Below, piece by piece: positions 4,906 through 29,183 of a DNA stretch of 32,000 bases. Made by a program: the position numbers and the translations under genes. Each line of letters opens with the position of its first letter. The stretch's first letter is position 1. The notes under the pieces are model-generated. The model ran no database searches. It was not told where the DNA came from and saw only the letters and a list, made by a program, of their open reading frames with translations. Origin of the DNA: Candidatus Saccharimonadota bacterium. Lineage in GTDB: Bacteria > Pseudomonadota > Alphaproteobacteria > CAJXXZ01 > 1604HC. The DNA lies in contig NZ_CP043315.1 in the NCBI RefSeq assembly GCF_008189285.1, positions 270,001-302,000 of the forward strand. Direction: 5' to 3'.

Positions 4906-5179
4906 AGATTTTAGATTTTAGATTTTAGATTTTAGATTTTAGATTTTAGATTTTAGATTTTAGATTTTAGATTTTAGATTTTAGATTTTAGATTTTAGAT
5001 TTTAGATTTTAGATTTTAGATTTTAGATTTTAGATTTTAGATTTTTAGATTTTAGATTTTAGATTTTAGATTTTAGATTTTAGATTTTAGATTTTAGATT
5101 TTAGATTTTAGATTTTAGATTTTAGATTTTAGATTTTAGATTTTAGATTTTAGATTTTAGATTTTAGATTTTAGATTTT
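4906..5179. repeat. heptanucleotide microsatellite (AGATTTT)x39, with one unit carrying an extra T
   Basis: Counted directly. There are 20 units from 4906, and the 20th (5039..5046) is AGATTTTT. A further 19 units run from 5047 to 5179. No other substitution is visible. Confidence 0.95.
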
Positions 5180-8303: not shown

Positions 8304-11021
8304 ATGAAATATAAAAATAAATTTTTATTGTCATTAGTAGTGCTATTAAGCGCGGATTGTATGAAAGGTAATCTTGAAAATAATCATATTGCCAGAGATT
8401 TAATGGAACAACTTTCAAAGACACAAGCTATGAATGCAATGAAAGCACATCAAGAAACAATTGATTCTATTCTTTTCATTAACCAAGGAGATTATTACTT
8501 AATTCAAGATGGTCATATGTACAAAGTTGACGATAGTTTGAAAAGTTCTATTTATGCAGATGCTACAGTAGCAAAAATTTCAGATGAAGTAAAAGCAAAA
8601 ATTACTGCAGGAGCAGTGGTTAACAGCGATAAAGAAGTAATTGATTCTGTTTTTGAATTTGTTAACAAAAAATCAACAGATGCTAAAATGAATTTATCTA
8701 ATTTAATGAACACTTTGTTAGAAGATGGGCTTTCTTCTGAAGATGATTTATTTGTTAGAGTTATTTCTGGATCTGAATTAAGCAACAGTGATGCTAATGC
8801 ATCCATTGATAGCTTAAACGATATTGATGAAGAGCATAAAAGTGAATTAAAAACATCTGTGTTGGTATCTGGAAATATTGATTATAAAAATAAGCATGAA
8901 GCATTGATTAGTGCGCAAAAAGAATTAGCACAATTTGCTGAAGACAACAGTGTTGCATTAAAAACTGCAATGAATAAAGCTGAAGCTGCTAAAGAAGAAT
9001 TAATTGAAAATGCAAGCAAAATCAGCGCTACATCTCATGAGATAAAATTAGCAAAACTTTATGCAGAGCAATTGAATATTATGAAAACTTATAAAGAGAA
9101 GATTGAATCTGATCAACGTAAGCTTAATTCTAAAGAAAATTCTGTGTTAGAGCTTAAAAGTGGTTCAGAGCGTGAAGCTGAAGAATTTAATCAAATTATG
9201 AGAAATGCTGTAGAAGCTGTAAGTATGATCAAAGCAATGCATAATGAATTAGATTTCTGGAAAACAAATGTTGGAGGAAGTGGAAGCGATAACCAAACAG
9301 CTAGAATGACTAGTTTTTACAACAAACTAAATGCAATGACAAACTTAATAGAGGTGTCAGGAATAGTTTATGCTAAAAATAATAGTGGTGAGTTAAATAG
9401 TTATGATCAATACAAAACAATGATTGAAGATCAAGACTTTATTAGCAAGATGAGCTCGCTTTCCATTGAAGGAGATAGCAATCCTATTTCAAAAGCTATA
9501 TATAATTTGTTGCAAATGACCAATTCATTAATAAAGTACCATGCTGCTTTCAACAGATCTCAATCTTTAGAATTTTCAGATTCAATAATTGAATTAAGCA
9601 GAGATTATTATAGAACTAATAGCAATGGAGACAAAGAGATTGAAATTGGAACTTTTGAATACATTGGTATCATGAGAGATGCGCAAAATAAAGATTACAC
9701 TTCCCAAGAAAATGATGCAGAGCTTATAGATCATGTAGAAAAAGCAATAAAAGTAGGGGTATCTTACGAAGAATTATTGCCTAGCGATGCTCTTGTTAAA
9801 GTTGATGCTGCATATAGACATATCCTAGATTCTGATAACACAGCAAAAGAAATAGAACTTGATGCAAAATTGATTGAACAATTAATGTTTGATGCAAATC
9901 AAGTTGTTGTAATAATAGATAATGCAGAAGTAATAATTGATTACAGCGATCTAATGATTACAAATGATGAGAAAGAAGAATTTTCGTATTTCCAGTATTC
10001 ATATGAAAGCGATGATGAAAAAGTAGAGCTTGATGAGAAAATTAGAGCAATTTTGATTAAAAAGCTTAAAGAGCATGCTTTAAGATCGACAGAAATCATG
10101 AAAATTGAAGCAAAAGAGTCTTGGGTTTCTATGAATGATACTATGGGAACACTAAATCAAGCTATTAACAATAACCTTGAAAAATCTCAAGATGATGATG
10201 GAAAATATACAAATATAGCCATGTATTACATTGCTGAACTTTCTGGGTTTGATGGTTCTAATTATGAAGAATTAAATAATGCTGTTAAAGATCATTTGAC
10301 AAGTCTTGGCTATGATGGGATAAACAAACCACAAGACATAGGAATCAGATGGAATTTTATACTTGGTGATCTTTACAATGAAGACTTATTGAATGTTTAT
10401 AAAAATGCTGTAAATGTTAAAAAAGCTTTAGCTGCATTAAAAATTGAGAAAGAAAAAGAAGAGCCTAGCGCTGAATTGAAACAAGATATCGAAGGTAAAA
10501 AAATAGAAGCAGAAAAATATAGCAATGCATTGCATGATTTTGTATATACTCCTGAGCCAGGAAATGGAAATGATCTAAATATTCCTGAAATCTTATGGAG
10601 TGGAGAAGGCGCCGCTTCTAGCTCAGTTAGCATATCATCAGGAAATAGAACAAGAGCAGGTTCTGCTAGATCAATATTTGATGAATATGTAGGGTATGGA
10701 AGATTCCAAGAAGGAATTGACAATTCTCTAAAAACATTAACAAATCCATTCGCAGGCGCAGCTTATTCTGCAGAGAAAACTGTACATACAAACTCTTTGG
10801 ATGCTCTTAATGCTGCAATTACAGAATTGGAAGCAAAGTTTAATGAAATAAATATTGATTCTGATGCATACAAATTTGAACTAGAGAAAAGCGCTGAATT
10901 GCATGCAGAAATAGATGTTCTTAATGTTGAAGTTAGTGCAAAATATCAAGATCAAGAAGATAAAGTTGCTGGATTGCAATCAGAATTAGATGCAATTCGT
11001 GAACAAATTAAAAATGCATAA
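8304..11021 (+). CDS. hypothetical large acidic, coiled-coil-rich secreted or surface protein
   Basis: A 905-aa uninterrupted ORF in a very AT-rich background, with GGAGG 4 nt upstream of the ATG. The N-terminus MKYKNKFLLSLVVLLSADC looks like a signal peptide. I recognise no family motif. Confidence 0.8.
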   Translation: MKYKNKFLLSLVVLLSADCMKGNLENNHIARDLMEQLSKTQAMNAMKAHQETIDSILFINQGDYYLIQDGHMYKVDDSLKSSIYADATVAKISDEVKAKITAGAVVNSDKEVIDSVFEFVNKKSTDAKMNLSNLMNTLLEDGLSSEDDLFVRVISGSELSNSDANASIDSLNDIDEEHKSELKTSVLVSGNIDYKNKHEALISAQKELAQFAEDNSVALKTAMNKAEAAKEELIENASKISATSHEIKLAKLYAEQLNIMKTYKEKIESDQRKLNSKENSVLELKSGSEREAEEFNQIMRNAVEAVSMIKAMHNELDFWKTNVGGSGSDNQTARMTSFYNKLNAMTNLIEVSGIVYAKNNSGELNSYDQYKTMIEDQDFISKMSSLSIEGDSNPISKAIYNLLQMTNSLIKYHAAFNRSQSLEFSDSIIELSRDYYRTNSNGDKEIEIGTFEYIGIMRDAQNKDYTSQENDAELIDHVEKAIKVGVSYEELLPSDALVKVDAAYRHILDSDNTAKEIELDAKLIEQLMFDANQVVVIIDNAEVIIDYSDLMITNDEKEEFSYFQYSYESDDEKVELDEKIRAILIKKLKEHALRSTEIMKIEAKESWVSMNDTMGTLNQAINNNLEKSQDDDGKYTNIAMYYIAELSGFDGSNYEELNNAVKDHLTSLGYDGINKPQDIGIRWNFILGDLYNEDLLNVYKNAVNVKKALAALKIEKEKEEPSAELKQDIEGKKIEAEKYSNALHDFVYTPEPGNGNDLNIPEILWSGEGAASSSVSISSGNRTRAGSARSIFDEYVGYGRFQEGIDNSLKTLTNPFAGAAYSAEKTVHTNSLDALNAAITELEAKFNEINIDSDAYKFELEKSAELHAEIDVLNVEVSAKYQDQEDKVAGLQSELDAIREQIKNA

Positions 11022-11173: not shown

Positions 11174-11216
11174 TTTCTTTGCAAGTATTATTTAAAATTA
11201 AATCAAAGGAATGGTA
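11174..11216 (+). promoter_or_regulatory. conserved 5' module TTTCTTTGCAA-N9-AAAATTAA-...AAGGA upstream of the IQ-motif protein gene
   Basis: See the alignment in the findings. The similarity to the 543-aa gene continues into the first 26 nt of coding sequence (ATGAAATATATCT[T/A]TTTAAGCATTG). Confidence 0.4.
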
Positions 11217-14200
11217 ATGAAATATATCTTTTTAAGCATTGTTGTCTTATTAATCTCAAACTCTCATATTGTGGCAGATGAAATAAATGATGATGAAATA
11301 TCACAAAATAAAATTGTAGAAAAAATCTATAAAAGAAAAATAAAACCAACTATTTCTAAAAAGAACAGTATAAAAAAAAGAAAATCAAGAAAATCTAAAC
11401 TTAAAGCCACAAAAAGAAGCAGAATAACTGGATCTAAAAGGCGAAAATTACCCGCAAAAAGAAGAAAGTCCTCTGCATCAAAATTGACCAAAAGATCATC
11501 AAGAAAAAGAGTTAGATTAAGTAGGGCAAAATATCCAATTGCAAAAAAACTTAATAAGATTAACTCTGTAGCTGTAAAGATTTCATATGAAGATATATAT
11601 AAAAATGAAATTAGAAAATTACAAGAAAAAGAAAATGAAATTAGAAATAAATTAATTGCTAGTAAAAATAATCATATGCTAGAAATAAAACTTAACAAAG
11701 AATTGACTAGCCTGCATTTGAAAACGATGCATTACAAATTATTGTTAAACAAACCCAATGATATATCAATGCAAATAAAGCAATTATCAAGCATGCAAAT
11801 GGATATTAGAAACAAATTTGACAAAGAAAAAGATCAAGCACAGAAAGATAAGCTGAGAAAAGAATTGCATGCCATTAGTGTGAATATAAATCATTATAAA
11901 TCACTATTAAATAGAAATAGATCTATGAAATCTGATTCATTATCAAGAAGAGATATGTCCGTAGAAGTTAATTTCAGGCCAAAAATTAACGAACCAAAAA
12001 GCACTGAGGGCGCAACTATATTGATGACAAAAGAACAAACTATATCACGTCCTGAAGAAATTGCAATTATTGCCCCAAAAGATTCTGTTGCATTAATAGA
12101 ATCATCAAGTAAAATTGAAAATCCTGCTAGAGACTCAGTTGTTTTAAAAAATAGCGAGCAAACAATTGTTAATCCAAAGAAATTAGTTGAGCTTGAAAGC
12201 GCATCATCAACAATAACAAATAAAGAAGATAAAAAAGAAGCGATCACCTTAGTGGAAAAAGAAGAGTATATAAGTAGAGATGAGCATAAAAAAAAGACTG
12301 TTGAATTATCTGGACATATGCATGAGATTAAATCAGAACACACAAAGCCTAATTTGATTGAGAAGGGGTCGCAGTTAGCAATTCCTCAATTTAAGGAAGA
12401 GGTAAAACTATTTGCGAATGATAAATCAATTACATCTCCAATAAGGGAAGAGCAGAAAAAAATAATTGAAGAAGAAAAACAACAACAATCAGCAACAAAG
12501 ATTCAAGCTTTATTTAGAGGAAGAAGTGCTAGAAAAGCAACTGAAGTAAAGAAAGTTGCTGAAGCAGAAGAGAAAAAGCTAGAAGAAGCAAGATTGAGTG
12601 AAGAAGAAAATAGAAAATTAATTAAATCTGAAGAGAAAATAGATAGAGAAGAAGGAGAAAAAAAGATTCGACTTTTATTGGAAAAATTAGTTGAAATAAA
12701 AGATATAAGAGCTACAACAGACAAAAGAAAAGAAAGGAATAAAAAATCAGAAGAAGAAAAAGAAACAAGAAAAGAAGTTGAAATAGTAGAGAGAAAGGAA
12801 ATAGAAGAACTAAAAGCTAAAGAAGAAAGAGCAAGAAAAGAAGTAGAAGCAAGATTAGATACAGAAGAAAAAGCAGCAACAAAGATTCAAGCTTTATTTA
12901 GAGGAAGAAGTGTAAGAAAAGCAACTGAAAAAACAACCCCAAAAGATATTGAAAGGAATAGCTCATCTGCCCCTTTAACTCCAAGAAAATTAAGTTTTGA
13001 TTCCTCAGACGATAGATCTTCAAGAGCTGAATCAGTCGATCATACACCTGGGCATGAAGATAAAAGAATATCAAGAGGATCAGATAGATCAACGTTTTCT
13101 TCAGATTCAACTTCTTCAAAAGGTTCAAAAAGATCATTAACAAAAGAGGAAATTGCAAAAAAAAATCAAAGCGCGAAGGTTGAAATAAACAATAATATAG
13201 AAGGGCAAAGAAGAAATGAAGCAATAACAAGAAAAAAGAACAAAGATATAAATAATAGAAAAAAAATAAAAATAAAACAAAACAAAATTAGAGCTAATAA
13301 TAGAATTAAACAAAATAAATTAAGAAAAGAAAAAGATCTGAGATTGTTCGGAAGAAAAATAGCAGAAGAAACTAATAGAAAACAAAAAGAATTAGAGAAA
13401 ATTAGAAAAGATAAACTAGATATTAAGCGGCTCAGTGAAGAAGAAAGTCGCACAAGGTCTGAATTGCAAAAAGAAGAAAGTTCTGGAAGATTAATGATAA
13501 AAGATTCTAAAGATAAAAATACATGGAAAGAAATTGCATTAAGTGAGAGTGATAATAACACTGAAGGACATGAAAATGATGATGAAAGCATGATTTCTGA
13601 AGAAATAACTCAAATTGAAAAAACTCTTGATCAGTTGAATGGAGAAAAGAAATCTATAGAAAATGGCATAAGAGAGTTTAAAAATAAAGTTGTGTTAAAA
13701 AATAAAGAAAAAGCAGAGTTAGCAAAAGATTTAAAAAAATTAAATGAATTGAAGAAAAAATCAGAAGAAAAATCTAATGAAAAAACACTTCCATTTGGAA
13801 GAACAAATCTTCAAAAGCTTAATGAAGCAGTTAAAAAACATGGAGGGTCAAATGCTGTAATTTTAATTGCAAGCATTGGAGAAAAAATTACAAGTTTAGG
13901 AAACGAAATAGTAGAATTAGAAAAAAACAAAAAAAAGCATGAAGAGAAATTAATTGCAGTGGAGAATGAAATTAAATCTAAACAAAAAGAATTGCAAACA
14001 AAGAAAAGCTTGCTTGAAAGAATAAAAAATGCCTTTAAAGCAGCGAGATCAAAAGTTATCCCTAGTAAAAGCAAAAAAAATAACAATCGAAATGCAGGAT
14101 CATCTGTAATTCCTTATTATGATGAAAGTCGTGAGGTATATTTATTGGATCCACAAATAACTCCTTACACATCTGAAAGAAGAAAAAATAATGACACAAA

Positions 14201-14318
14201 ATCTAGATCACCTTCTGGAAGTAGGTCAAATTCATTAAACTCTCCTTCTAAGTCTTCTTCTGCCAAAAATAAAACTCCACCTAAGTCAAAATATGCACAT
14301 ACAATATATTCTTATTAA
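11217..14318 (+). CDS. hypothetical secreted, hyper-charged protein with two IQ motifs
   Basis: A long ORF (1035 aa from the ATG at 11211). I prefer the ATG at 11217 because MKYIFLSIVVLLIS... then aligns with the paralogous MKYIYLSIAALLIS... and sits 6 nt after AAGGA. The order is signal peptide, a K/R/S polybasic tract, coiled-coil-like segments, and IQxxxRGxxxR twice. Confidence 0.85.
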   Translation: MKYIFLSIVVLLISNSHIVADEINDDEISQNKIVEKIYKRKIKPTISKKNSIKKRKSRKSKLKATKRSRITGSKRRKLPAKRRKSSASKLTKRSSRKRVRLSRAKYPIAKKLNKINSVAVKISYEDIYKNEIRKLQEKENEIRNKLIASKNNHMLEIKLNKELTSLHLKTMHYKLLLNKPNDISMQIKQLSSMQMDIRNKFDKEKDQAQKDKLRKELHAISVNINHYKSLLNRNRSMKSDSLSRRDMSVEVNFRPKINEPKSTEGATILMTKEQTISRPEEIAIIAPKDSVALIESSSKIENPARDSVVLKNSEQTIVNPKKLVELESASSTITNKEDKKEAITLVEKEEYISRDEHKKKTVELSGHMHEIKSEHTKPNLIEKGSQLAIPQFKEEVKLFANDKSITSPIREEQKKIIEEEKQQQSATKIQALFRGRSARKATEVKKVAEAEEKKLEEARLSEEENRKLIKSEEKIDREEGEKKIRLLLEKLVEIKDIRATTDKRKERNKKSEEEKETRKEVEIVERKEIEELKAKEERARKEVEARLDTEEKAATKIQALFRGRSVRKATEKTTPKDIERNSSSAPLTPRKLSFDSSDDRSSRAESVDHTPGHEDKRISRGSDRSTFSSDSTSSKGSKRSLTKEEIAKKNQSAKVEINNNIEGQRRNEAITRKKNKDINNRKKIKIKQNKIRANNRIKQNKLRKEKDLRLFGRKIAEETNRKQKELEKIRKDKLDIKRLSEEESRTRSELQKEESSGRLMIKDSKDKNTWKEIALSESDNNTEGHENDDESMISEEITQIEKTLDQLNGEKKSIENGIREFKNKVVLKNKEKAELAKDLKKLNELKKKSEEKSNEKTLPFGRTNLQKLNEAVKKHGGSNAVILIASIGEKITSLGNEIVELEKNKKKHEEKLIAVENEIKSKQKELQTKKSLLERIKNAFKAARSKVIPSKSKKNNNRNAGSSVIPYYDESREVYLLDPQITPYTSERRKNNDTKSRSPSGSRSNSLNSPSKSSSAKNKTPPKSKYAHTIYSY
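12501..12533 (+). other. IQ motif 1 (IQALFRGRSAR) within the 1033-aa protein
   Basis: An exact fit to the IQxxxRGxxxR consensus. The context SATKIQALFRGRSARKATE resembles neuromodulin AATKIQASFRGHITRKK. Confidence 0.7.
12885..12917 (+). other. IQ motif 2 (IQALFRGRSVR) within the 1033-aa protein
   Basis: An exact fit to IQxxxRGxxxR in the context AATKIQALFRGRSVRKATE. The DNA patch 12876..12929 is 52/54 identical to 12492..12545. Confidence 0.7.
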
Positions 14319-14411
14319 CTTGATTAATTATTATCCGTGATGAGGGAGAATAAAGTGAAAATTCCAAGGACAGCTCTTTTGTTTATTAGTTAAGCAAACT
14401 ATAATGTGCGC

Positions 14412-14996
14412 ATGAAGATATTCATAATTTTTGCTTTATGTATGTCTATTTCTGGGAAAAGTCTTTCTCAAGAATCGCATATTGTTTTTCTTGGTAAAAT
14501 TTTAGATTACCATTCGGATCATGATGAAATAAACTTGATTAATCAAAGAAATATTTCTCTGAATAAACTGAGGTTAGATTTTCCGCTTTTTGATTTATTT
14601 ATTTCTCAGAAAAATAAAACTTCTTTTGCAAAATGGTTTTATCATTTTTGCTCTTTGTCTATTATGAATTCGAGTAGAAAAAAACAAATGCAAGAAATTT
14701 ATAGCCTTATTAATATTTCTGTTGATGGATTTATTAATGGGGTCATGCAATTAAACTCTATTGATTGTAGCACTTTGTCAGATAATGCAAAAAATTGGAT
14801 TGATAGAGCGCAATTATGGATTAAAGCTTACAAAAAATTCGAAAAATCATATCAAGATAAATCTGGAAAGTTATATCAAAATAATAATCACGATATAACT
14901 AGAAAAATAAGTGAAAAGTCTTTTAAAAATAAATTTGAACAAAAAACAAATGAAAAGCTTGATGAGAAAAATTCTAAGAAAGTGGATGAAATATGA
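14412..14996 (+). CDS. hypothetical exported or membrane-anchored protein (possible reduced HemX/Mic60-like)
   Basis: The ORF has a hydrophobic N-terminus, MKIFIIFALCMSISGKSLSQ. Its stop overlaps the next gene's start (ATGA). The C-terminal ...LSDNAKNWIDRAQLWIKAYKKFEK resembles the end of mitofilin/HemX-type domains, but the match is weak. I prefer the ATG at 14412 over the track's GTG at 14406. Confidence 0.6.
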   Translation: MKIFIIFALCMSISGKSLSQESHIVFLGKILDYHSDHDEINLINQRNISLNKLRLDFPLFDLFISQKNKTSFAKWFYHFCSLSIMNSSRKKQMQEIYSLINISVDGFINGVMQLNSIDCSTLSDNAKNWIDRAQLWIKAYKKFEKSYQDKSGKLYQNNNHDITRKISEKSFKNKFEQKTNEKLDEKNSKKVDEI

Positions 14997-15733
14997 TTTT
15001 TAAAATAATATCTATAATATTGATTGTAATTACAATTAAAATATTTGATTTTATACCAATTCACATTAAAGTAGGAGATCTGAATTATAAATGCAATTTT
15101 TCTATCATAATTTTATTTGCGATGATGCTTTCTTGGATTATTTATTATTTTTGCAATTTAAAATATTGTATAAAATCCCACTGCAATAAATCTAAGCAAA
15201 GCAAGATGGAAAAACAAGAAATTGAAACAAATAAGAAAATAATTCAACAATCAATTGAAAATGTTTGCAAGATTTGTTTAAGCAATTATAATGATTTAAA
15301 TGGCCTAATAAGCGAAAATGATAAAAATGATAAAATTAATGAAGTTGAAAAAAGTTGCGCTCATAATAGAAGCATTTTAATTGATATGATTGATATGATT
15401 TGCAATGTTAATTTTCATAGTGCGAAAAATCTTGACTTATATATAAACGATAAATTATTTGAATTTATAGAAAAATCATATGAGTATTTAAGAAATAACA
15501 ATTACATTAAAGCGCAGGAAAGTTTAGAAAATTTGTATGATCATGTAAAAATATCGCCAAAAATTCATAATTATAAGTGCATTTATGAGAATTTATATGT
15601 TTGTTATATAGAAAATAAAGAATATGATAAATGTCAAAATATGTTAGATGATTTATATAAACGAAATGCAATTAATAAGGATCAATATGATGAAAAATGC
15701 AGAGGAATACTGAAGTATGGGAAAATTATATAA
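14993..15733 (+). CDS. hypothetical membrane protein, HemY_N-like N-terminus with a helical (TPR-like) C-terminus
   Basis: Two N-terminal hydrophobic helices flank IHIKVGDLNYKCNFS, compared with E. coli HemY VLIQTDNYNIETSV between its two TM helices. The C-terminal half is helical, with TPR-like Y/L/N spacing. Confidence 0.6.
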   Translation: MIFKIISIILIVITIKIFDFIPIHIKVGDLNYKCNFSIIILFAMMLSWIIYYFCNLKYCIKSHCNKSKQSKMEKQEIETNKKIIQQSIENVCKICLSNYNDLNGLISENDKNDKINEVEKSCAHNRSILIDMIDMICNVNFHSAKNLDLYINDKLFEFIEKSYEYLRNNNYIKAQESLENLYDHVKISPKIHNYKCIYENLYVCYIENKEYDKCQNMLDDLYKRNAINKDQYDEKCRGILKYGKII

Positions 15734-15859
15734 TAAGTCTAAATGCTAATCATGCTGTACAAAATATGCGAAATATGAAAAAATAATTTATTAGAAATCT
15801 TGTTATAAGATTTACTTGTAGGCTATTTTGTGTTCTAATTTACTTATTAAGGAGATTTT

Positions 15860-16387
15860 ATGAGTAGATTGCTTATGCCACGTTCTACAGCGCTGTGGTT
15901 ATTAAATAATACTAAATTAACATTGCAACAAATATCCAGTTTCTGCTCAATGTCCATTTTAGATCTAGATGTTATGAAGAGAGGATTTTCCGATTCTGCA
16001 TTACAAGAAAGCGACCCTGTTAGCAGAGGTCAGTTGTTATTGGAAGAAATAGAATTATGCGAAGAAAATCCAAGCAGGAAATTAAGCTTGAATGTTGTAG
16101 TAGAAGTTAAAAGTGAAATTAGGAAAATTCCATATAAATTAAAGAAGCAACTATCTAAATTTATTTCATGGATGCATAGAAATTATCCAGATTTGACAAA
16201 CAAAGAGATTGCAAAATTCTTTGGAGTAACGCAAAAAACTGTAGAAGATGTTGTGGATAATCCTAATTCATTTTTTGAAGCTTCAGACCCAATTTTAAAT
16301 GGAGTGTGTTCGAAAGAACATTTAAATGCTTTTATTGAAAAAGTAGAGCAAAATAGAGAAAAGGCTGCTAAGAAAAGTAAAAAATAA
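15860..16387 (+). CDS. DUF1013-family protein (alphaproteobacteria-restricted; annotated in some genomes as a cell-cycle regulator)
   Basis: MSRLLMPRSTALWLLNNTKLTLQQISSFC...DPVSRGQLLLEEIELCEENPSRKL...ISWMHRNYPDLTNKEIAKFFGVTQKTVE...DPILNGVC follows the conserved DUF1013 pattern (LMPKATAVWL..NT.L.F.QIA.FC, DP...GQLT.EEI..CE). AAGGAG lies 6 nt upstream of the ATG. Confidence 0.8.
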   Translation: MSRLLMPRSTALWLLNNTKLTLQQISSFCSMSILDLDVMKRGFSDSALQESDPVSRGQLLLEEIELCEENPSRKLSLNVVVEVKSEIRKIPYKLKKQLSKFISWMHRNYPDLTNKEIAKFFGVTQKTVEDVVDNPNSFFEASDPILNGVCSKEHLNAFIEKVEQNREKAAKKSKK

Positions 16388-16775
16388 TTAAATTATTGCA
16401 TTATTTAAAAGTAATTCTTAGAAATTATATTTCTTCTTGGATTTTCCTTCTTTTTATTCAATTTAGATATTTGAATTTCTTAAAATAACATTCATTTTAT
16501 TAATTATAAATCAAGAAATATAATTATATATGCACTAGAAGTATAACCAATGATTTCAGAATTAATGAAAAAATTATTTATCAATATTGCGCGATACACT
16601 ATTTAGATACAGCTGTTCTCTATTAGAGGTTGTATTTATTATATAAATTATTTTCATAAAAATTTACATTCAATGCTGCTTGCTAGCTCTATATTGCATA
16701 TTTATTTTTATATGAAGCTGATATAATCTAGGGAAATAGTGAAAAATACAAAAACCATGAAAGGTATAAATCAAA

Positions 16776-17300
16776 ATGCATGATTTTATATTGTTAACAA
16801 GTTCTTTTCTTGTAGGATCTATCCCATTTGGAAGGATTTGGTCTTTTTTGTTAGGGAAAAAAGATTTGAGAAATTGTGGATCAGGAAACATAGGAACAAC
16901 CAATGCTTTTAGGGTTAATGGAAAAGTTGTTGGAATTCTAACTGCTTTGTTTGATGTAGGGAAAGGATTTGCATGTTTGTTATTTCCTAATCCTGCTTTA
17001 TTTGGATCATGGATAGTAATTGGTCATATTTATGCACCATGGTCAGGTGGAAAAGGAGTCGCTGCATTTTTCGGAATATGTTTAGCAATTCTAAAATTTT
17101 ACGCACTAATACCTATGATTACATGGATCGCATTGGTTTATTGCAAAATTAGACCAACTTATGCTAGTTATGTAGCATTATTCATTATGTGTATTATTGC
17201 ATTTATTAAAGTTCAAGAGATTTTTATGTTAATAGCTTTGTTAAGTGTGGCAATTATATACAAACATATTGTTTCTGACCTATCCAAGAGATGCAGATGA
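16776..17300 (+). CDS. plsY: glycerol-3-phosphate acyltransferase PlsY
   Basis: A polytopic membrane ORF carrying the PlsY signature LVGSIPFGRIW...GSGNIGTTNAFRVNGK. Confidence 0.85.
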   Translation: MHDFILLTSSFLVGSIPFGRIWSFLLGKKDLRNCGSGNIGTTNAFRVNGKVVGILTALFDVGKGFACLLFPNPALFGSWIVIGHIYAPWSGGKGVAAFFGICLAILKFYALIPMITWIALVYCKIRPTYASYVALFIMCIIAFIKVQEIFMLIALLSVAIIYKHIVSDLSKRCR

Positions 17301-18406
17301 TAAAGTATGAACAGAATAATAATAAATTCAATAAAATTCTAACCGAAGAAGAAAAAATAGATTTTCTAAGAGTTATTAGGACGAAAAATATTGGCCCAAT
17401 TAGCTTTTTTCACTTGTTAAATACTCATAAAACTATAGATAAGGTAATTAAATTTTTAGAAACAAAACTTGAAGTTAAATCTAAAACATATGCTGTAGAA
17501 GAAATGAGAAAAATTCGTAATTATGGAGCTGATATTATATGTTTTTCAGAGCCAAATTACCCTATTTTATTACGTGAAATTAGAGATTGCCCTCCCGTTA
17601 TTTGCGCAAAAGGTGATTTGGGCATATTAAGTAGAGAGAAGCTTTTTGCAATTGCTGGGTCTAGAACATGCTCTGTACAAAGTCAAGTTATGACAAAAAG
17701 AATTACATCTGAATTAGGAGAAAATGGATACACTATAGTTTCAGGATTAGCTCGTGGAATTGATACATGCGCTCATCAGAATAGTTTAAATACTGGAACA
17801 ATTGCAGTTCTTGCAAATGGGATAGATCATGTTTACCCATCAGAAAATAAATCATTATACGAAAAAATTGCAATAAAAGGCGTTATATTATCAGAAGTAG
17901 AATTTGGAACAAAGCCATCTGCGCATTTATTCCCAAATCGAAATCGAATTATTGCTGGAATGAGTTTGGGAGTGTTAATTGCAGAAGCTAGTGTAAAATC
18001 TGGATCTCTAATTACTTCTCAATGTGCTCTAGAAAATGGTCGAGATGTTTTTGCTATACCTGGATGCCCGCTTGATCCTCGTTCGCGTGGTGCAAATAAA
18101 TTGATTAAACAAGGAGCTGCTTTAGTAGAATTTATTCACGATATTACAAATGCATTTGAAGATTTTTCTCTCAAAGAGCCAGTTGAGAGCTATATTCCAG
18201 AAATAAAATACGATTTCTCTGAGAAGCAACTATCTGATTATAGCGAGAAATTATTAGATATGATTGGATTTTTCCCAATTTCGATAGAATTACTTATTAA
18301 TAAAATGGATATTCCGATCAGTACGGTTAGAGCGCTGCTTGCTCAGCTTGAAATCGAAGGGAAAATATCGCATTCTTGGGGAAATAAAGTTTCATTGCGA
18401 AGATAA
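17291..18406 (+). CDS. dprA: DNA-processing protein DprA/Smf
   Basis: The DprA core motifs are present: GSRTCS...SGLARGIDTCAH...GTIAVLANGIDHVYPSEN...FPNRNRIIAGMS...AEASVKSGSLITSQCALENGRDVFAIPG. It overlaps plsY by 10 nt. Confidence 0.9.
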   Translation: MQMIKYEQNNNKFNKILTEEEKIDFLRVIRTKNIGPISFFHLLNTHKTIDKVIKFLETKLEVKSKTYAVEEMRKIRNYGADIICFSEPNYPILLREIRDCPPVICAKGDLGILSREKLFAIAGSRTCSVQSQVMTKRITSELGENGYTIVSGLARGIDTCAHQNSLNTGTIAVLANGIDHVYPSENKSLYEKIAIKGVILSEVEFGTKPSAHLFPNRNRIIAGMSLGVLIAEASVKSGSLITSQCALENGRDVFAIPGCPLDPRSRGANKLIKQGAALVEFIHDITNAFEDFSLKEPVESYIPEIKYDFSEKQLSDYSEKLLDMIGFFPISIELLINKMDIPISTVRALLAQLEIEGKISHSWGNKVSLRR

Positions 18407-18582
18407 TGTAATTCGCAAATAAATTTTCTTTACAAGTGATTTATGAAAATAAATATTAACATGGAAAATTCATTGTATAGTATAAATTTGCATAAATAAA
18501 TATTTCTATGAAAATGATTGGTGAAAATATCAATGTAAAAAATAGCATTGTTTTATGTTGCTTGCTTTTAGCGTTTAGTATT

Positions 18583-18656
18583 TATATTTCTATCGATTTC
18601 ATTTGGCTGCAGCTTTATTTTATATTTCTATCGATTTCATTTGAATGCAGTTTTAT
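18583..18656. repeat. tandem duplication of a ~36-38-bp unit (TATATTTCTATCGATTTCATTTGRMTGCAGYTTTAT)
   Basis: The copies at 18583..18618 and 18621..18656 differ at 3 positions. They lie in the convergent intergenic region between dprA and the 543-aa gene. Confidence 0.8.
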
Positions 18657-18781
18657 GTTAGATAAATATTTCTGTTAAAGATTTATGATGAGCTTAATCT
18701 CTCAATCTACTTCCATTTTTACAATGTTTTTTAAATTATTTCTTTTTTCTAAGCTCATTTCACGCTTCAGTAAGTTTATTA

Positions 18782-20413
18782 CTAGATGTCATTTTCATCA
18801 GAATCTTTATAATTACCAGACATCATACGTTGCCTAATCAGTGCCTTTCTCATTTTTTCTTCAAATTCGCTTTTTGTTTCTTTCGCTTTCTTTAATTTGA
18901 AGTTTCCTTTTCTTATTTCTGCGAACAAATCCGCTCTGCTATCTTGATCTTCACTTAAAGGCATTGAAGCTTTAGACAAGCCTTTTATTCCTTCTTTAGG
19001 AAGTGCTGGGGCATCAGGAATTGCTCCAGTTTTAGGCGCAGGAGGAGGTGTTGGAATTGCTCCAGTTTCAGATGCAGGAGTTTCGTCAAAAGCTATTTCT
19101 CCCATTGATAATTTATCAGCTCTTTTTTCTGCAGCAAGATCAAGAGCTTTTCTTTTTTCTCTGCCTTTTTCTTCAAGCTCTATCAGAAAACTCGCTTTAG
19201 TTGAATTTCCAGATGTTGCTTTAGACAAGCCTTTTATCCCTTCTTTAGGAAGTGCTGGGGCATCAGGAATTGCTCCAGTTTTAGGCGCAGGAGGAGGTGT
19301 TGGAATTGCTCCAGTTTTAGGCACAAGAGGAGGTGTTGGAATTGCTCCAGTTTCAGATGCAGGAGTTTCGTCAAAAGCTATTTCCCCCATTGATAATTTA
19401 TCAGCTCTTTTTTCTGCAGCAAGATCAAGAGCTTTTCTTTTTTCTCTGCCTTTTTCTTCAAGCTCTATCAGAAAACTCGCTTTAGTTGAATTTCCAGATG
19501 TTGCTTTAGACAAGCCTTTTATCCCTTCTTTAGGAAGTGCTGGGGCATCAGGAATTGCTCCAGTTTCAGATACAGAAGTTTGAAGTGCTGCATTAGTTGA
19601 ATTGTCTCCTGCTATTTTAGGAATTGAAAAATAATCATCATCTACATTAGTTGAATTGTCTGCTGTTTTTTTAGGTGAATTCAACGAAGGTGCATTTATG
19701 CTTCCTTTTGCTGATCTTTCAATTTCGTTCATCTCTTGAGAAGCATTTTGTTCGATTGCACTTCTCTTGCTATGTTCTTCTATTAAAAATGCTGAGGAAT
19801 TTTCTAGAATATTTTTAGCTTTATTAGTTGCAAATTGAGTGCTTTTAATTTTTGATTCAACAACAAATAATCTATTTTCCAATTCCACTTTTTCTTTTGC
19901 TGTTAATTTTGTGTTGTTTGTCAATTTTGTTGTTAACGCCATTTTCTCTGCATTCATGCTTCTTAGATCAGTCATATTTTTGTCATAATCTTTAGATAAT
20001 TGGTCATAATAAGAAACTGTTGCGCTTTTTGTTTTTGCAGATGATGCAGATGATCTTGAAGTTGGTCTGAAGCTTCTTCTTGCAATTCGTCTTCCAGATC
20101 TAGTTGCGCTTCTTCTAAATACAGGCTTGCGAGATCTTGAAATTCTTCTTTTAGCAGCTCTTCTTGATTTGGAAGTAACTTTCCTTCTTTTAGCAGCGGA
20201 TTTTCTTCTTGATTTAGCAGCGGATTTTCTTCTTGATTTGGAAGTAACTTTCTTTCTAGATTTTCTTTTTGTTTTTTTAAACGATTTATCATCGCTTTTT
20301 TTTATTTCAGTGTGAACAGGCTTTCCCTCTACAATACTCATGTTAACTTCTTTTGCATCAGCATATGTATTAGAAATCAATAAAGCGGCAATGCTTAAAT
20401 AGATATATTTCAT
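18782..20413 (-). CDS. hypothetical secreted protein: signal peptide, polybasic tract, coiled coil, proline-rich tandem repeats, C-terminal WH2/connector/acidic (WCA-like) tail
   Basis: A 543-aa ORF with AAGGAG 7 nt upstream of the ATG. The N-terminus MKYIYLSIAALLISNTYA|DA looks like a Sec signal peptide. The C-terminus ADLFAEIRKGNFKLKKAKETKSEFEEKMRKALIRQRMMSGNYKDSDENDI carries the WCA-like tail. Confidence 0.9.
   Translation of the reverse strand: MKYIYLSIAALLISNTYADAKEVNMSIVEGKPVHTEIKKSDDKSFKKTKRKSRKKVTSKSRRKSAAKSRRKSAAKRRKVTSKSRRAAKRRISRSRKPVFRRSATRSGRRIARRSFRPTSRSSASSAKTKSATVSYYDQLSKDYDKNMTDLRSMNAEKMALTTKLTNNTKLTAKEKVELENRLFVVESKIKSTQFATNKAKNILENSSAFLIEEHSKRSAIEQNASQEMNEIERSAKGSINAPSLNSPKKTADNSTNVDDDYFSIPKIAGDNSTNAALQTSVSETGAIPDAPALPKEGIKGLSKATSGNSTKASFLIELEEKGREKRKALDLAAEKRADKLSMGEIAFDETPASETGAIPTPPLVPKTGAIPTPPPAPKTGAIPDAPALPKEGIKGLSKATSGNSTKASFLIELEEKGREKRKALDLAAEKRADKLSMGEIAFDETPASETGAIPTPPPAPKTGAIPDAPALPKEGIKGLSKASMPLSEDQDSRADLFAEIRKGNFKLKKAKETKSEFEEKMRKALIRQRMMSGNYKDSDENDI
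18887..18934 (-). other. candidate WH2 (G-actin-binding) motif ADLFAEIRKGNFKLKK
   Basis: It matches the WH2 pattern LLxxIxxGxxLKK(V/A) with one extra residue before LKK. Compare WAVE (RSVLLEAIRKGIQLRKV) and N-WASP (ALLDQIRQGIQLKSV). Confidence 0.65.
18968..19567 (-). repeat. near-identical in-frame tandem repeats (249 bp, 285 bp, and a partial third of ~60 bp) encoding proline-rich and helical modules
   Basis: Units begin at 18971, 19220 and 19505. Units 1 and 2 differ by 2 substitutions plus a 36-bp indel that adds one more TGAIPTPPxxPK sub-repeat. Confidence 0.9.
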
Positions 20414-20459
20414 TACTATTCTCCTTTTATTTTAATTTTAAATATGATTTGCAAAGAAA
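20414..20459 (-). promoter_or_regulatory. conserved 5' module (reverse complement: TTTCTTTGCAA-N9-AAAATTAA-...AAGGAG) upstream of the 543-aa gene
   Basis: This is the third occurrence of the motif at the same distance from the start codon. Confidence 0.4.
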
Positions 20460-20676
20460 TTGCTAATTGATAGGAGAAATTGCTTATACTTAACTTATCA
20501 TGATTTAATTCTACATAAATTTATTTATCAAACATCGCTTTATTTCAATGATTTGTTTGTTTTAAAAAGAATTTAGAAAGAAAAGAGCAAATGATTTTTG
20601 AAGAATATTTGAAGTGATTTGCTTGTAAAATTTACAGAATAATGAGATCTTTAACACAAAGGAACTCAATTTTCTC

Positions 20677-21498
20677 ATGACATTTCTAGAAATTATCGAT
20701 AGATTAGAGAAGTTTTGGATAAAATTTGGTTGTAAAATTATTCATCCTGCTGATATGACAGTTGGAGCTGCAACTATGCATCCACACTTTATTTTAAATG
20801 CATCTAAAAAACATAGGTTGGCTTATATGCAACCATGCAGAAGGCCGCAAGATAGTAGGCCAGATAGCAAAAATAGACTTTATAAGCATCATCAATTCCA
20901 AGTTACAATTAATCCTGTAATGGAAAATATTCAAGATGTATTTTTGGACAGTTTGCTTGATATTGGATTTGATTTAGATGTTCATGAAATTAAATTTCTT
21001 GCTGGAAACTGGCAAAGTCCAAGTTTGGGAGCATTTGGAGTAGGTAGTGAAGTTTGGGCAAACAATAGCGAAATTGCGCAATTTACTTATTTTCAACAAG
21101 TGGGTGGAAAGCCATTAAGTGAACAAGTTGTTGAATTGACTTATGGACTTGAAAGAATCGCAATGAGTTTGCAGAATATTGAAAATTGGCGAGATATAAT
21201 ATGGCAAGATGGAGTTAAATATGATGATATAGATGATTCAGAGTTTAGCATTGCCTCTAATAATAATTATAATGTTGAGTATCTTAAAAATACTTTTGAT
21301 ATGCATTTAAATGAATCAATTCATTTATTGAGTTTGAATTTGCGATACCCAGCATACGAGGAATTTTTGAGAGCTAGTCACGCATTTAATACATTAGAAT
21401 CCAGGCAAGCATTCAGTCCTACACAACGCGTTGATGAGTTAAATAAATTGAGAAGTGTGGGGCAGAAATGCGCAAGCCAAGAAAGCAATAAATCATGA
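20677..21498 (+). CDS. glyQ: glycine--tRNA ligase alpha subunit
   Basis: FLEIIDRLEKFW...GC.I..P.DM.VGA.T.HP...YMQPCRRPQDSR...NRLYKHHQFQV...LTYGLERIAM is a typical GlyQ sequence. Confidence 0.95.
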   Translation: MTFLEIIDRLEKFWIKFGCKIIHPADMTVGAATMHPHFILNASKKHRLAYMQPCRRPQDSRPDSKNRLYKHHQFQVTINPVMENIQDVFLDSLLDIGFDLDVHEIKFLAGNWQSPSLGAFGVGSEVWANNSEIAQFTYFQQVGGKPLSEQVVELTYGLERIAMSLQNIENWRDIIWQDGVKYDDIDDSEFSIASNNNYNVEYLKNTFDMHLNESIHLLSLNLRYPAYEEFLRASHAFNTLESRQAFSPTQRVDELNKLRSVGQKCASQESNKS

Positions 21499-23543: not shown

Positions 23544-24437
23544 ATGAATAATTTTAATAATGAATTGGTTATAGTGGATGGATTCAGCTTGTTATTTAGG
23601 AATTTTTTCGCTATGCAAAATTTATATAATATTGACGGGCTTCCTATAGGTGGAGTTTCTGGATTTGTTAGAACTTTATTTAAAGTTGTTGATAATTTTA
23701 ATCCTCAATACTGCGCTATTGCATTAGATAGTGGAAAGCCAACTTGGAGACATAAATTATACCCTAAATATAAATCTAATAGAAAATCAACTCCTGAAGA
23801 TCTTGTTCCTCAGTTTCAAATTATGTTTGAGGCTTGTGATGCATTTGGAATTTCCGCCTTTAAGGGAGGAGAATGTGAGGCTGATGACTGGATAGCATCT
23901 ATAGTAAATAAGTATAAAAATACTTGTTCAAAAGTATATGTTTGTTCTAGTGATAAAGATTTGATGCAATTGGTTGGTGGAAATGTATATTTTATAGATC
24001 CATTTAAATTAATGATTATGCATGAGCATGATGTAGTTCAGAAAATGGGAGTGTCACCTTTGCAAATTCCTGATCTTTTTGGATTGATTGGAGATGCGAG
24101 TGATTGCATTCCTGGAGTTCCGAGCATTGGTCCGAAAACTGCATCAAATTGGATTAATGCATTTGAGAATATTGAAAATATATTTGAAAATAAAGATAAA
24201 TTAAACCCAAAATCAAGAAGAGGTAAATTTATTGAATTTTATGATCAAGCTATACTATCAAGAACATTAGCTCAATTAAAGCATGAATTAACTTTGCCTG
24301 AGATTTCTTCATTAAGCTATGGATCTGAAGAAGAAATTATACATGAATTTGTGCATAAATATAAAATGAGCAAACATATTAGAAAATACCCTAAATCTAT
24401 AACAACAAATAAGCAATCTTTTGATTTTATATATTGA
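23544..24437 (+). CDS. 5'-3' exonuclease / flap endonuclease (Pol I N-terminal-domain homologue, no polymerase domain)
   Basis: LVIVDGFSLLFRNFFA...KPTWRHKLYPKYKSNR...EADDWIASI...SSDKDLMQLV...GDASDCIPGVPSIGPKTA matches the PIN-like and H3TH motifs of the 5'-nuclease family. The ORF stops after 297 aa. Confidence 0.85.
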   Translation: MNNFNNELVIVDGFSLLFRNFFAMQNLYNIDGLPIGGVSGFVRTLFKVVDNFNPQYCAIALDSGKPTWRHKLYPKYKSNRKSTPEDLVPQFQIMFEACDAFGISAFKGGECEADDWIASIVNKYKNTCSKVYVCSSDKDLMQLVGGNVYFIDPFKLMIMHEHDVVQKMGVSPLQIPDLFGLIGDASDCIPGVPSIGPKTASNWINAFENIENIFENKDKLNPKSRRGKFIEFYDQAILSRTLAQLKHELTLPEISSLSYGSEEEIIHEFVHKYKMSKHIRKYPKSITTNKQSFDFIY

Positions 24438-24769
24438 TTATATTGATTGATTTTTTTATTTTGTATATTTATCTATTGTAAAATTATCAATATGATTCAA
24501 TTTATTTGATTTATTATGTGATTAAATAGTTAATTTAAATAAGTTTTTTAAACAAATGCATTGTGTGTTAAGTTTATCCAATTTTGCAGAATTGATTAAA
24601 TAATTTATCAAGTTTTTTTATTTGACAGCAATTGCATTTTCTCTTCAAAGTCAATCCAGCTCCTTCTTTATTGAATTTTAAAGTGTTTCTTTTTTTTGAT
24701 TAATTTATAAATAATATTTTATATTTTATTATTTTATATTCACATCTTATATGTTAAATTTTAGTTATT

Positions 24770-25975
24770 ATGAATTTGCTTAATTGGCTAGAGTCTAGAA
24801 AACTAATATATCAAAAAACCAACGAATCTAACTTATCGGATCAATTGGAGAAAAAGCAAATATGTGCTTATTTAGGAGCAGATTTAACAGCTTCAAGCTT
24901 GCATATTGGACATCTTCTTCCTTTGAGAATTCTAAAAATTCTTTCTGAGCATGGATGTAAAAGTATTTTTTTGTTTGGAAGAGGGACCACAATGATTGGA
25001 GATCCTTCTCTTAGAACCAAAGAAAGACCAATGTTAAGCCAAGAAGAGATTTATCAAAATATGAATAATATAAAGCCTCAAGTTGATAAATTAATTAAAA
25101 ATGTTATATATGAAGATAATGCTAATTGGTTGCTAAATACTAATTTAATTGATTTTCTCAGAGAAGTGGGAAGTAAGTTTTCAGTTAATCAGATGGTAAA
25201 TTTAGAGACTTTTAAAAATAGAATTGAAAATAATAATCCTTTGAGTTTTTTGGAATTTTCATATCCTATTTTGCAATCTTATGATTTTTATCATTTAAAC
25301 AAGAATCATGGATGCAATCTTCAAATTGGTGGATCTGATCAATGGGGAAATATAATTAATGGAGTGCATTTTATAAAGAAAATGACATCAAAAGAAACTT
25401 ATGGCATTACACTGCCCTTGCTTTTGAAGGGTGGAAAAAAAATGGGCAAAAGTGTCGGAGGAGCTATATGGCTTGATGAAAAACAAACAAGTGTGTTTGA
25501 TTTTTGGCAATTTTGGAGAAATTTACCAGATTCTGATGTGGAAGATTATTTATTGAAGTTTACAGATATTCCTCATGAAGAAATTAAAGATATGGTTAAG
25601 AATTCTATAAATGATGCGAAAAAGAAGATTGCTGACTACTTGACTTCATGGGTTCATGGAGAGGAAAAAACAAAAAATGCTAAAGAAAAAAGCATTTCTA
25701 TTTTTGAAAACAAAAACATGAATAGTTTAGATGAGTTTAAATTGGATGATAAGCAATTCAGTAATTCAGAAATCAAATTGACAAAATTGCTTGTGGAAAT
25801 CGGATTATCTGATTCTGCATCTGACGCAAAGAGAAAAATTAAAAATAATAGCATAACTGTAAATTCAGAATTGATTGAAAAACAAGATGCAGTAATTTCT
25901 AAAAATGATTTTGATAGTGAAATTATTGTAGGGCATGGAAAAAAGAAAAAAATTAAAGTTGTTTTGGCAAAATAA
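24770..25975 (+). CDS. tyrS: tyrosine--tRNA ligase
   Basis: It has the HIGH motif (SLHIGHLLPL), a KMSKS-type motif (KKMGKS), GGSDQWGNI, and a C-terminal S4-like domain (LLVEIGLSDSASDAKRKIKNNSITVN). Confidence 0.95.
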   Translation: MNLLNWLESRKLIYQKTNESNLSDQLEKKQICAYLGADLTASSLHIGHLLPLRILKILSEHGCKSIFLFGRGTTMIGDPSLRTKERPMLSQEEIYQNMNNIKPQVDKLIKNVIYEDNANWLLNTNLIDFLREVGSKFSVNQMVNLETFKNRIENNNPLSFLEFSYPILQSYDFYHLNKNHGCNLQIGGSDQWGNIINGVHFIKKMTSKETYGITLPLLLKGGKKMGKSVGGAIWLDEKQTSVFDFWQFWRNLPDSDVEDYLLKFTDIPHEEIKDMVKNSINDAKKKIADYLTSWVHGEEKTKNAKEKSISIFENKNMNSLDEFKLDDKQFSNSEIKLTKLLVEIGLSDSASDAKRKIKNNSITVNSELIEKQDAVISKNDFDSEIIVGHGKKKKIKVVLAK

Positions 25976-28118: not shown

Positions 28119-29183
28119 TCATTCTATCAGAATAAGTTAGAGGATCTGGATTAGCGCTTAATTGAATGAGAATGTTATATTTCATTAATGTGAAATTATA
28201 AAATTTAAATTTATTAAGATATGCACTTATGCCAGTTAATAGCATTAAATTTATGTAAAAAGCATAAATTTTGATCAAATATTTTAACATGATCAATAAA
28301 GTTAGTTATATTTACAATAATTTAAAAATTTCTTATAACAAATCAGTTAGATTAAATTTGCAGGGCATAACAATTAAAATATTGTAAAAATTGATATAGT
28401 AAGCATTAAATTATATATTAAAATGTTTGTAAATTATAAATTGAGCCTCTAAGATTTAACAAATAAAATTACGCTCAATCTTTTTTCTATGATGTTTTAT
28501 AAAATTAAAAAATAGGATTATAGAAAATCTCTTAAAAATAAATATTATGGAAAATAAAAATAACAGTCAAAATTTATAATTTAATATTAAAATATTGGAT
28601 TTCATTTAGAGAAATAAGTAATAAATTTGCAAAATATATTATCAAGGCTAATAATTATACTTATAATCATCAAAATTAATACTTTGTTTGATTTTTTTAT
28701 ATAAAAGAAAAATGAATTAGATTAGTTAAATGACATTGATTGATTATGTGAGCTTTGTCAAATTTCAATAATTCATTAACCTATGCTTTTAATAATTTAT
28801 CAAAATAATACAATATAATGCGTATTATTACAGTTAATCAAAAATAAATAAATTCATAGCATTTTTTTGAGCAATAAATTTAATATTTTAAAATCATCTA
28901 AAATTAGAGCAGAAAATTATAGTATAAATTATTAAGATAGATTTCTATTAATAAAATTATAAATCGATTTATTAAGGTGCAAAATGAATTTAAATAGAAA
29001 CTAGCATTCAAAATAATATTTGTTTGTCGTTTGTTTCTGTTTTATTTTTAAGTAAAAATAAGCATTTCTATTTTATTTATGCATTTCCTTTTCAAATTTA
29101 TCGATAGAAGTGTGTCTTATAAATTTACAATATGTAAATATTTGCAATGAATTTACAATCATGAAATTCATTGTTTGTTTTGA

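Follow-up and report, generated by a model that had tools for sequence, protein, structure and literature searches.

A candidate actin-binding WH2 motif at the C-terminus of a lineage-specific, putatively exported protein of 'Candidatus Cytomitobacter indipagum'

Introduction

Does the genome of a bacterium living inside a diplonemid encode a mimic of host actin regulators and, if so, is this mimic of the kind that activates the Arp2/3 complex? The question is raised by an open reading frame (ORF) of 543 residues plus stop, located at positions 18782..20413 on the reverse strand of a 32,000-nucleotide stretch (contig NZ_CP043315.1, positions 270,001 to 302,000), hereafter called the window. 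Its product is QEK37988.1 / WP_148980835.1, with full identity, from 'Ca. Cytomitobacter indipagum'. This endosymbiont of the diplonemid Diplonema aggregatum belongs to the Holosporaceae and has a genome of 628 kb. The protein is labelled as hypothetical in GenBank and automatically named 'WH2 domain-containing protein' in RefSeq, UniProt and UniRef. A preliminary description, made from the sequence alone, had seen in its last 50 residues a tail of the WASP/WAVE/RickA type, made of a WH2 motif, a connector and an acidic end (WCA), and these residues were correctly quoted, as positions 18785-18934 (reverse strand) translate exactly to ADLFAEIRKGNFKLKKAKETKSEFEEKMRKALIRQRMMSGNYKDSDENDI, the C-terminus of the ORF.

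Our answer is a divided one. We give an even chance to the reading that QEK37988 is a lineage-specific, Sec-exported host-interaction protein whose single C-terminal WH2 motif binds host globular actin (G-actin); that it crosses both membranes, binds actin or influences polymerisation is what we infer here. The protein is probably not a canonical Arp2/3 activator.

Bacterial mimics of actin regulators, such as ActA, RickA, BimA, TARP and VopL, have taught us much about actin nucleation and, to our knowledge, they all come from animal pathogens. If a diplonemid symbiont of the Holosporaceae used a WH2 effector, the strategy would be extended to a further order of bacteria and to a host from among the Euglenozoa, whose actin machinery has barely been studied. 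To judge from its sequence, this effector would also carry an unusual leader, in which a Sec-type signal is followed by a polybasic tract. The genome paper (bioRxiv 719211) mentions neither WH2, nor actin, nor RickA, and a 2025 review of the Holosporales is likewise silent on all three; no paper connecting WH2 with the Holosporales was found in the literature, and 2026 papers on these symbionts do not mention the protein. The WH2 label itself is already public (RefSeq, UniRef), and the practical gain is modest pending binding.

The Candidate WH2 Motif

The motif occupies residues 490-514 (18872..18946, reverse strand) and was examined by Pfam, shuffling and a regular expression. Its core, LFAEIRKGNFKLKKA (residues 496-510), fits the pattern of LLxxI, then G, then LKK[VTA]. 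The one extra residue that had been reported is confirmed and is common to QEK37988 and to LFAQIREGGVTLRKV, the corresponding segment of a WH2 protein of Cardinium hertigii. In the AlphaFold2 (AF2) model, a helix spanning residues 489-501 is followed by an extended LKKA segment, and this secondary structure fits a WH2 motif, since a short helix precedes the extended LKKA.

With the Pfam model PF02205, the score of the motif depends on the length of the query: 19.7 bits for the whole protein, 22.4 bits for the last 105 residues and 23.6 bits (E 3.9e-5) for the last 69, values which straddle the gathering score of 23.1 bits. For calibration, the same model gives 34.0 bits to WAVE1, 30.1 bits to the second WH2 of N-WASP and 19.8 bits to one of the Cardinium WH2 motifs. 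A single WH2 stretch is detected in QEK37988 at E<=10, and neither nine composition-preserving shuffles nor the reversed tail gives a Pfam WH2 match at that threshold. A loose regular expression, which finds N-WASP twice, WAVE1 once and the Cardinium protein three times, matches QEK37988 once, as compared with 46 of 200,000 shuffles of it (p ~2e-4 per protein), and matches nothing else when the window is translated in six frames (64,000 residues).

The motif is also where QEK37988 resembles another protein. When residues 127-543 were compared by phmmer with 1.84 billion representative proteins, three proteins were retrieved at E<=0.001, namely QEK37988 itself, the WH2 protein of Cardinium hertigii, with an E-value of 9.7e-9, and a proline-rich protein of a fish. 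The best non-self match is thus the Cardinium protein, and the alignment spans the WH2 motif and its flanks, with 32% identity over 68 residues. On these grounds the WH2 motif is probably real but borderline: the pattern, the clean shuffle and reverse controls and the Cardinium match stand for the proposal, and the whole-protein Pfam score, below gathering, stands against it.

The alternative is a chance motif in a protein that never meets actin. QEK37988 might then belong to the periplasm or envelope (as a TolA/TonB-like spacer with a helical and a proline-rich part, for instance), be a polycation that sits at the surface or binds nucleic acids, or be a repeat protein that evolves fast and has no fixed function. 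The near-threshold score would agree with this, and so would the lysine- and glutamate-rich (K/E-rich) helical composition, which makes LKK-type strings easier to obtain, as well as the orphan status of the protein, which has 98%-identical internal repeats. Signal peptide followed by proline-rich spacer is, moreover, also the grammar of TonB and TolA. A hidden Markov model (HMM) of our own, built from five WASP-type WH2 seeds, gives QEK37988 only 5.9 bits, a score reached by 18 of 20,000 shuffles, and does not rank the ORF first in the window, but this model is too narrow to inform. Several observations go the other way: no TonB_C, TolA or other envelope family is found in Pfam at E<=10 or in NCBIfam at E<=1; the ~55 residues that follow the repeats are modelled by AF2 as two helices and not as a folded domain; shuffles and reversed sequence lack the WH2 match; and the top database match is a genuine WH2 protein rather than a K-rich bacterial envelope protein. 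Finally, a paralogue of QEK37988 independently has another eukaryote-type motif above its Pfam threshold (see below). Taken together, we consider a chance motif rather unlikely, though still a serious contender.

An IQ-Motif Paralogue with the Same Leader

The paralogue, of 1035 residues, is encoded within 10 kb of QEK37988, on the forward strand (11211..14318). BLASTP aligns the two proteins with 36% identity over 112 residues (E 6e-8); their putative signal peptides are nearly identical (MKYIFLSIVVLLISN in the paralogue and MKYIYLSIAALLISN in QEK37988) and the polybasic tract is kept, with 35 lysines or arginines (K/R) and no aspartate or glutamate (D/E) in residues 41-112. In place of WH2, the paralogue carries, at 12501-12542 and 12885-12926, two copies of IQALFRGRS[AV]R, a perfect IQ (calmodulin-binding) motif (Pfam IQ, 33.7 bits for a gathering score of 20.3).

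Two proteins of the same neighbourhood therefore have one common export and polybasic leader and different eukaryote-type motifs, related to the cytoskeleton or to motors. As the paralogue combines the same leader with two IQ motifs, the presence of short eukaryote-type motifs behind this leader forms a pattern, which by sequence points to a small modular family. For us, this makes it more likely from the outset that the C-terminal motifs are host-directed modules with a function rather than noise.

Two further traits of the paralogue were observed: long K/E-rich helical stretches follow its IQ motifs, and the AT skew of its coding strand is very high (0.35-0.47).

The Connector-Like Helix and the Acidic End

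Downstream of the WH2 motif, AF2 predicts a 'C-like' helix, KSEFEEKMRKALIRQRMM, at residues 514-531 (18821..18874, reverse strand), with a predicted local distance difference test score (pLDDT) of ~73-76. It is followed by a disordered acidic end, SGNYKDSDENDI, at residues 532-543 (18785..18820, reverse strand). The preliminary description had seen in these two segments a parallel to the connector and acidic (CA) regions of WAVE and WASP, and in the whole protein the domain order of class I nucleation-promoting factors (NPFs). If QEK37988 were a true class I NPF, WH2 would deliver actin, the helix would act as C and SGNYKDSDENDI as A, and host Arp2/3 would be activated to form actin clouds or tails, as is the case for RickA, ActA and BimA of B. 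thailandensis.

The order of proline-rich region, WH2, helix and acidic end does agree with a W-C-A arrangement, and the region following WH2 aligns with the real C region of the Cardinium protein (...AEALRKRL). The parallel with WAVE and WASP is visible to the eye, the best local alignment being that with the C-A region of WAVE1 (ALIRQRMMSGNYKDSDEN versus ATILSRRIAVEYSDSEDD), but it does not hold statistically. Smith-Waterman comparisons of the last 33 residues with the CA regions of WAVE1, N-WASP and the Cardinium protein, evaluated with 5,000 shuffles, give p values of 0.026, 0.20 and 0.14, respectively, none of which is significant after three tests. The reference WCA sequences had been checked against PDB chains (6UHC_H and 2VCP_D for N-WASP, 3P8C_D for WAVE1). 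Residues F517, M521, A524, L525 and M531 lie on one face of the helix, yet its hydrophobic moment (0.19) is below the shuffle mean (0.28), so that it is not measurably amphipathic. The linker between W and C is also short, with ~5-10 residues versus 17-25 in WAVE1 and N-WASP.

The acidic end deviates most. As had been noticed, it is short and lacks Trp: it has 12 residues and a net charge of -3, and there is no Trp at all, nor any Cys, across the 543 residues of the protein. In cryo-electron microscopy structures of NPF-bound Arp2/3, the conserved Trp is sandwiched in Arp3 and ArpC1 pockets and, according to that study, plays a crucial part in binding and activating Arp2/3 (PMC7274804). We therefore weigh this trait as the failure of a defining feature, and not as an interesting difference. 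In addition, the exhaustive phmmer search retrieved no WASP, WAVE or RickA relative. Sequence searches of the PDB with the tail of QEK37988 or with the Cardinium WCA likewise returned no WCA chain, the motifs being too short.

Membership of QEK37988 in the WASP/WAVE/RickA family is thus ruled out, as it has neither the Trp nor a detectable relative. What stands of the class I domain order is the succession of proline-rich repeats and WH2. With so short an acidic tail, and one devoid of Trp, QEK37988 is probably not a canonical Arp2/3 activator, and the reading as a true class I NPF is an improbable one in our judgement, even though actin-based trafficking is cited in PMC11909080 as having been reported for Holospora. 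No paper naming a WH2 or RickA-type factor behind this trafficking was found in the literature.

The close succession of WH2 and helix could be read in still another way. The helix starts ~5 residues after LKKA in the AF2 model, and a WH2 motif so closely trailed by a helix brings to mind the long form found in beta-thymosins more readily than the layout of WASP. QEK37988 could thus be a sequestering protein, in which WH2 and the helix of residues 514-531 would cap both faces of an actin monomer, lower local polymerisation and keep actin away from the symbiont. We regard this as very improbable indeed: Pfam Thymosin gives no match even at E<=10, and upstream proline-rich repeats are typical of WH2 proteins that promote assembly, not of those that sequester actin.

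Leader, Hairpin and Proline-Rich Repeats

The remainder of QEK37988 was examined for elements that could bring the WH2 motif into contact with host actin. The first 20 residues (20354..20413, reverse strand) resemble, by inspection, a signal peptide (MKYIYLSIAALLISNTYADA), with MK as n-region, YIYLSIAALLI as hydrophobic core and, by eye, A-D-A or T-Y-A as candidate cleavage-type motifs (TYA|DA or ADA|KE). AF2 predicts an overlapping helix at residues 5-22, and the protein is not a lipoprotein, since it has no Cys. The polybasic tract that follows (residues ~37-126; 20036..20305, reverse strand) consists of 8-residue repeats rich in K, R, S and A; residues 20-126 contain 43 K/R versus 5 D/E, for a net charge of +38. 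The basic tract announced by the preliminary description is thus borne out by counts; for its Sec signal peptide, inspection shows a segment that resembles one.

A helical hairpin is confidently modelled by AF2 at residues 131-237 (19703..20023, reverse strand; pLDDT 83-98) and is a possible oligomerisation or scaffold domain. Foldseek searches with the AF2 model found only generic helical hairpins, all at E>0.1.

The region of residues 283-488 (18950..19567, reverse strand), located upstream of WH2, combines six proline-rich mini-repeats of 12 residues, TGAIP(T/D)(P/A)P..PK, with two copies of a 32-residue helix (residues 310-341 and 405-436), and is encoded by a tandem DNA repeat (285 bp x 1.9, 98% identical). 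Pfam Drf_FH1 scores 25.2 bits on the protein, under its gathering score of 40. The internal helices, SFLIELEEKGREKRKAL, were considered as degenerate WH2 motifs, which would have made QEK37988 a tandem-WH2 nucleator; this was ruled out, as they have no Pfam match and their similarity to the tail has a p value of 0.71.

A Possible Route to Host Actin

Cytomitobacter lives free in the host cytoplasm, without a surrounding host membrane, and prefers places beside the mitochondrion, being occasionally found inside it (PMC5845003). Its genome retains Sec, a remnant of a type II secretion system/type IV pilus (T2SS/T4P) and a type VI secretion system in altered form, and encodes 106 proteins with predicted signal peptides; its authors speculated that effectors acting on cytoskeletal proteins could position the symbiont (bioRxiv 719211). 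As the bacterium is naked in the host cytoplasm and QEK37988 combines a WH2 motif with a signal-peptide-like start, host actin is a reasonable target.

The sequence suggests how this target could be reached. The signal peptide would carry QEK37988 across the inner membrane, and the protein would then reach the bacterial surface or the host cytosol, perhaps through release by the remnant T2SS/T4P-like system, or by the +38 polybasic tract keeping it attached to the anionic outer surface. There, if the motif behaves as its consensus implies, the helix of residues 489-501 would dock in the barbed-end cleft of an actin monomer, with LKKA extending along it. The six proline-rich mini-repeats and the helical hairpin could provide multivalency, adaptor binding or oligomerisation. 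The outcome would be that actin is concentrated or tethered at the symbiont or in its vicinity, much as with bacterial effectors of the TARP or Ena/VASP type.

Several points weigh against the view of QEK37988 as an exported, actin-binding host-interaction protein. The WH2 score is borderline and rests on ~25 residues, and the E-value of the Cardinium match sums three identical repeats, one pairwise alignment being worth 38.5 bits. The genomes and databases searched contain no orthologue of QEK37988 that would speak for its conservation. The signal peptide was judged by eye, and both the Sec passage of the +38 tract and the crossing of the outer membrane are conjectural. The proline runs do not exceed three consecutive residues. 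This is shorter than in classical profilin ligands. Finally, a search of the literature on Arp2/3 or actin regulators of diplonemids, including Diplonema aggregatum, found nothing usable.

A bolder reading would join QEK37988 and its paralogue. A modular effector family would have evolved in situ, combining the Sec/polybasic leader either with WH2 for actin or with IQ for calmodulin or myosin light chains, and the tail made of WH2, helix and acidic end would be a minimal, Trp-independent activator or recruiter of the divergent Arp2/3 and actin of the euglenozoan host, used for placing the symbiont beside the mitochondrion or for pushing it inside. We hold this to be a long shot, even less probable than a conventional class I NPF. 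If true, it would offer the first molecular handle on actin manipulation in the Holosporales and a new solution to Arp2/3 engagement. 

The reading of QEK37988 as an Arp2/3 activator fails a defining test. The two proteins are concrete, testable candidates for the positioning of Cytomitobacter beside host mitochondria.

Comparison with Known Systems

The closest match, Cardinium hertigii AWN81445.1 (681 residues), is like QEK37988 encoded by an intracellular symbiont and has a proline-rich stretch directly before WH2 and a K/E-rich linker after it. It differs by its three WH2 motifs (49.9 bits in total) instead of one, by a canonical C region with a long acidic tail ending in NNEWDD, and by the absence of any N-terminal hydrophobic, signal-like segment that we could see; its bacterium belongs to the Bacteroidota, and the similarity covers only ~68 residues. 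AWN81445.1 was itself found to contain three identical repeats of PPPPPP plus WH2, and to end in a textbook C region and a Trp-containing acidic tail (...AEALRKRLEEIKK...EEDNDNDDGTNNEWDD), so that its W-W-W-C-A arrangement is complete. In the 2012 Cardinium genome paper, a WH2 and proline-rich protein was mentioned only as Sca2-like; PMC3486910 mentions CAHE_0010, a related protein of Cardinium.

The WCA regions of WASP and WAVE share with QEK37988 the WH2 consensus, a helix after WH2 and a C-terminal end rich in D, E and S, with a local resemblance in WAVE1 (...RRIAVEYSDSEDD). They differ by the conserved Trp, an acidic part of ~20-25 residues instead of 12 and a longer W-C linker; they have no significant sequence relationship to QEK37988 and belong to eukaryotic cytosolic proteins without a signal peptide. 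RickA is, like QEK37988, the product of an alphaproteobacterial cytosol-dweller and has a proline-rich region and one or more WH2 motifs near its C-terminus. The conserved Trp is present in its acidic end. RickA lacks a Sec signal, is characterised at its N-terminus by a repeat with a G-actin-binding domain, and activates Arp2/3, mimicking host NPFs (bioRxiv 2023.02.26.530123); the signal-peptide-like start of QEK37988, recognised by inspection, is thus indeed unlike RickA, as had been remarked.

The functional analogy that we favour is with Chlamydia TARP, B. pseudomallei BimA, Rickettsia Sca2 and Vibrio VopL/VopF: they combine WH2, proline-rich segments and an oligomerising or scaffold element, need no CA region and either enter the host cytosol by delivery or are exposed there. 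These proteins use signals of the type III secretion system or autotransporter anchors, whereas in QEK37988 a Sec-type leader is joined to a polybasic tract and a beta-barrel is absent; it also has one WH2 motif where VopL/F and Sca2 have three, and there is no sequence homology. An autotransporter of the BimA, Sca2 or IcsA type was considered and ruled out, as Pfam gives no autotransporter match, AF2 predicts helix and coil without strands, and the WH2 tail forms the C-terminus. A tandem-WH2 nucleator, of the Spire, Cobl, VopL/VopF or Sca2 cluster type with its three or more motifs in a row, was also ruled out by the single WH2 stretch found at E<=10.

A last comparison, made by description, is with a precedent from within the Holosporaceae, an 89-kDa protein of Holospora obtusa. 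In this species proteins are stored in the periplasm, and the 89-kDa one, periplasmic and hence Sec-routed, has two actin-binding motifs and is exposed to the host at the invasion tip (PMC9866348). It belongs to a specialised infectious form that is not reported for Cytomitobacter (PMC5845003), and the exhaustive database search turned up no homology between it and QEK37988.

Gene, Locus and Origin

QEK37988 is encoded by a real gene, as indicated by a strong Shine-Dalgarno sequence, by an ORF of 1.6 kb in DNA of ~30% GC, which is not expected by chance, and by a native GC content at third codon positions (GC3). The Shine-Dalgarno sequence, AAGGAG (20421..20426, reverse strand), was read 7 nucleotides 5' of the ATG at 20413. 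GC3 is 0.176, within the range of the housekeeping genes of the window (0.17-0.26); total GC is slightly raised, the source being second positions (Pro, Ala, Ser and Arg codons).

The gene is a species-level orphan. By means of GlyQ homologues (63-79% identity), the loci of C. primus and of three other close relatives (L002-L005) were obtained, and tblastn of QEK37988 against these four loci gave no match. Word-indexed database searches retrieved only QEK37988 itself with the full protein and no candidate with the 61-residue tail; two metagenome scans, one with an alignment of the N-terminal module and the other with the last 105 residues, retrieved nothing, and a DprA-based scan of genome contigs for synteny found only an unrelated Rhodospirillales metagenome-assembled genome. 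A recent transfer from the host was also considered and finds no support, GC3 being native and no eukaryotic relative having been found.

The gene order has changed around this orphan. In the four relatives, topA, dprA, plsY and trcR lie on one strand in the order topA-dprA-plsY-trcR, and two unknown genes are located immediately upstream of glyQ. In the window, after the same two unknown genes (14406-15733) comes the block trcR-plsY-dprA, here turned the other way round, and then the gene of QEK37988 and glyQ. topA is not adjacent to the trcR-plsY-dprA block, and the breakpoint region with respect to L002-L005 extends from 14406 to 20677. The gene of QEK37988 is thus an orphan located at a synteny breakpoint, with native codon composition.

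Other differences from the relatives were observed in this part of the chromosome. A 246-residue ORF (14993-15733, forward strand) looks by eye like the N-terminal part of the 360-397-residue membrane protein encoded upstream of glyQ in the relatives (MIFKIISIILIV versus MISKIIYIISVAII); as it is ~120-150 residues shorter, it may be truncated. In L003 (13626-17265) and L005 (13659-17262), the 5'-3' exonuclease gene is separated from tyrS by mreB, two small genes and a gene for a PBP2-type transpeptidase. In the window (24437-24770) and in L004, tyrS comes directly after the exonuclease gene, and this rod-shape cluster is therefore absent at that place in the window.

Long, very AT-rich stretches (GC 0.17-0.20) devoid of any ORF of at least 100 residues occur at 4801-6000 and 28201-28800. 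Two further ORFs of the window start with hydrophobic segments and have no Pfam or NCBIfam match. The first (905 residues; 8304-11021, forward strand) adjoins the IQ-motif paralogue, has an N-terminal hydrophobic leader (MKYKNKFLLSLVVLLSADC) and D/E/N-rich, coiled-coil-like stretches, and is another orphan candidate secreted protein. The second (481 residues; 29184-30629, reverse strand) begins much like a signal peptide (MLVYLLLAIACVNA) and is rich in G, Y, N and K; by eye, it displays alternating patterns that suggest an outer-membrane beta-barrel.

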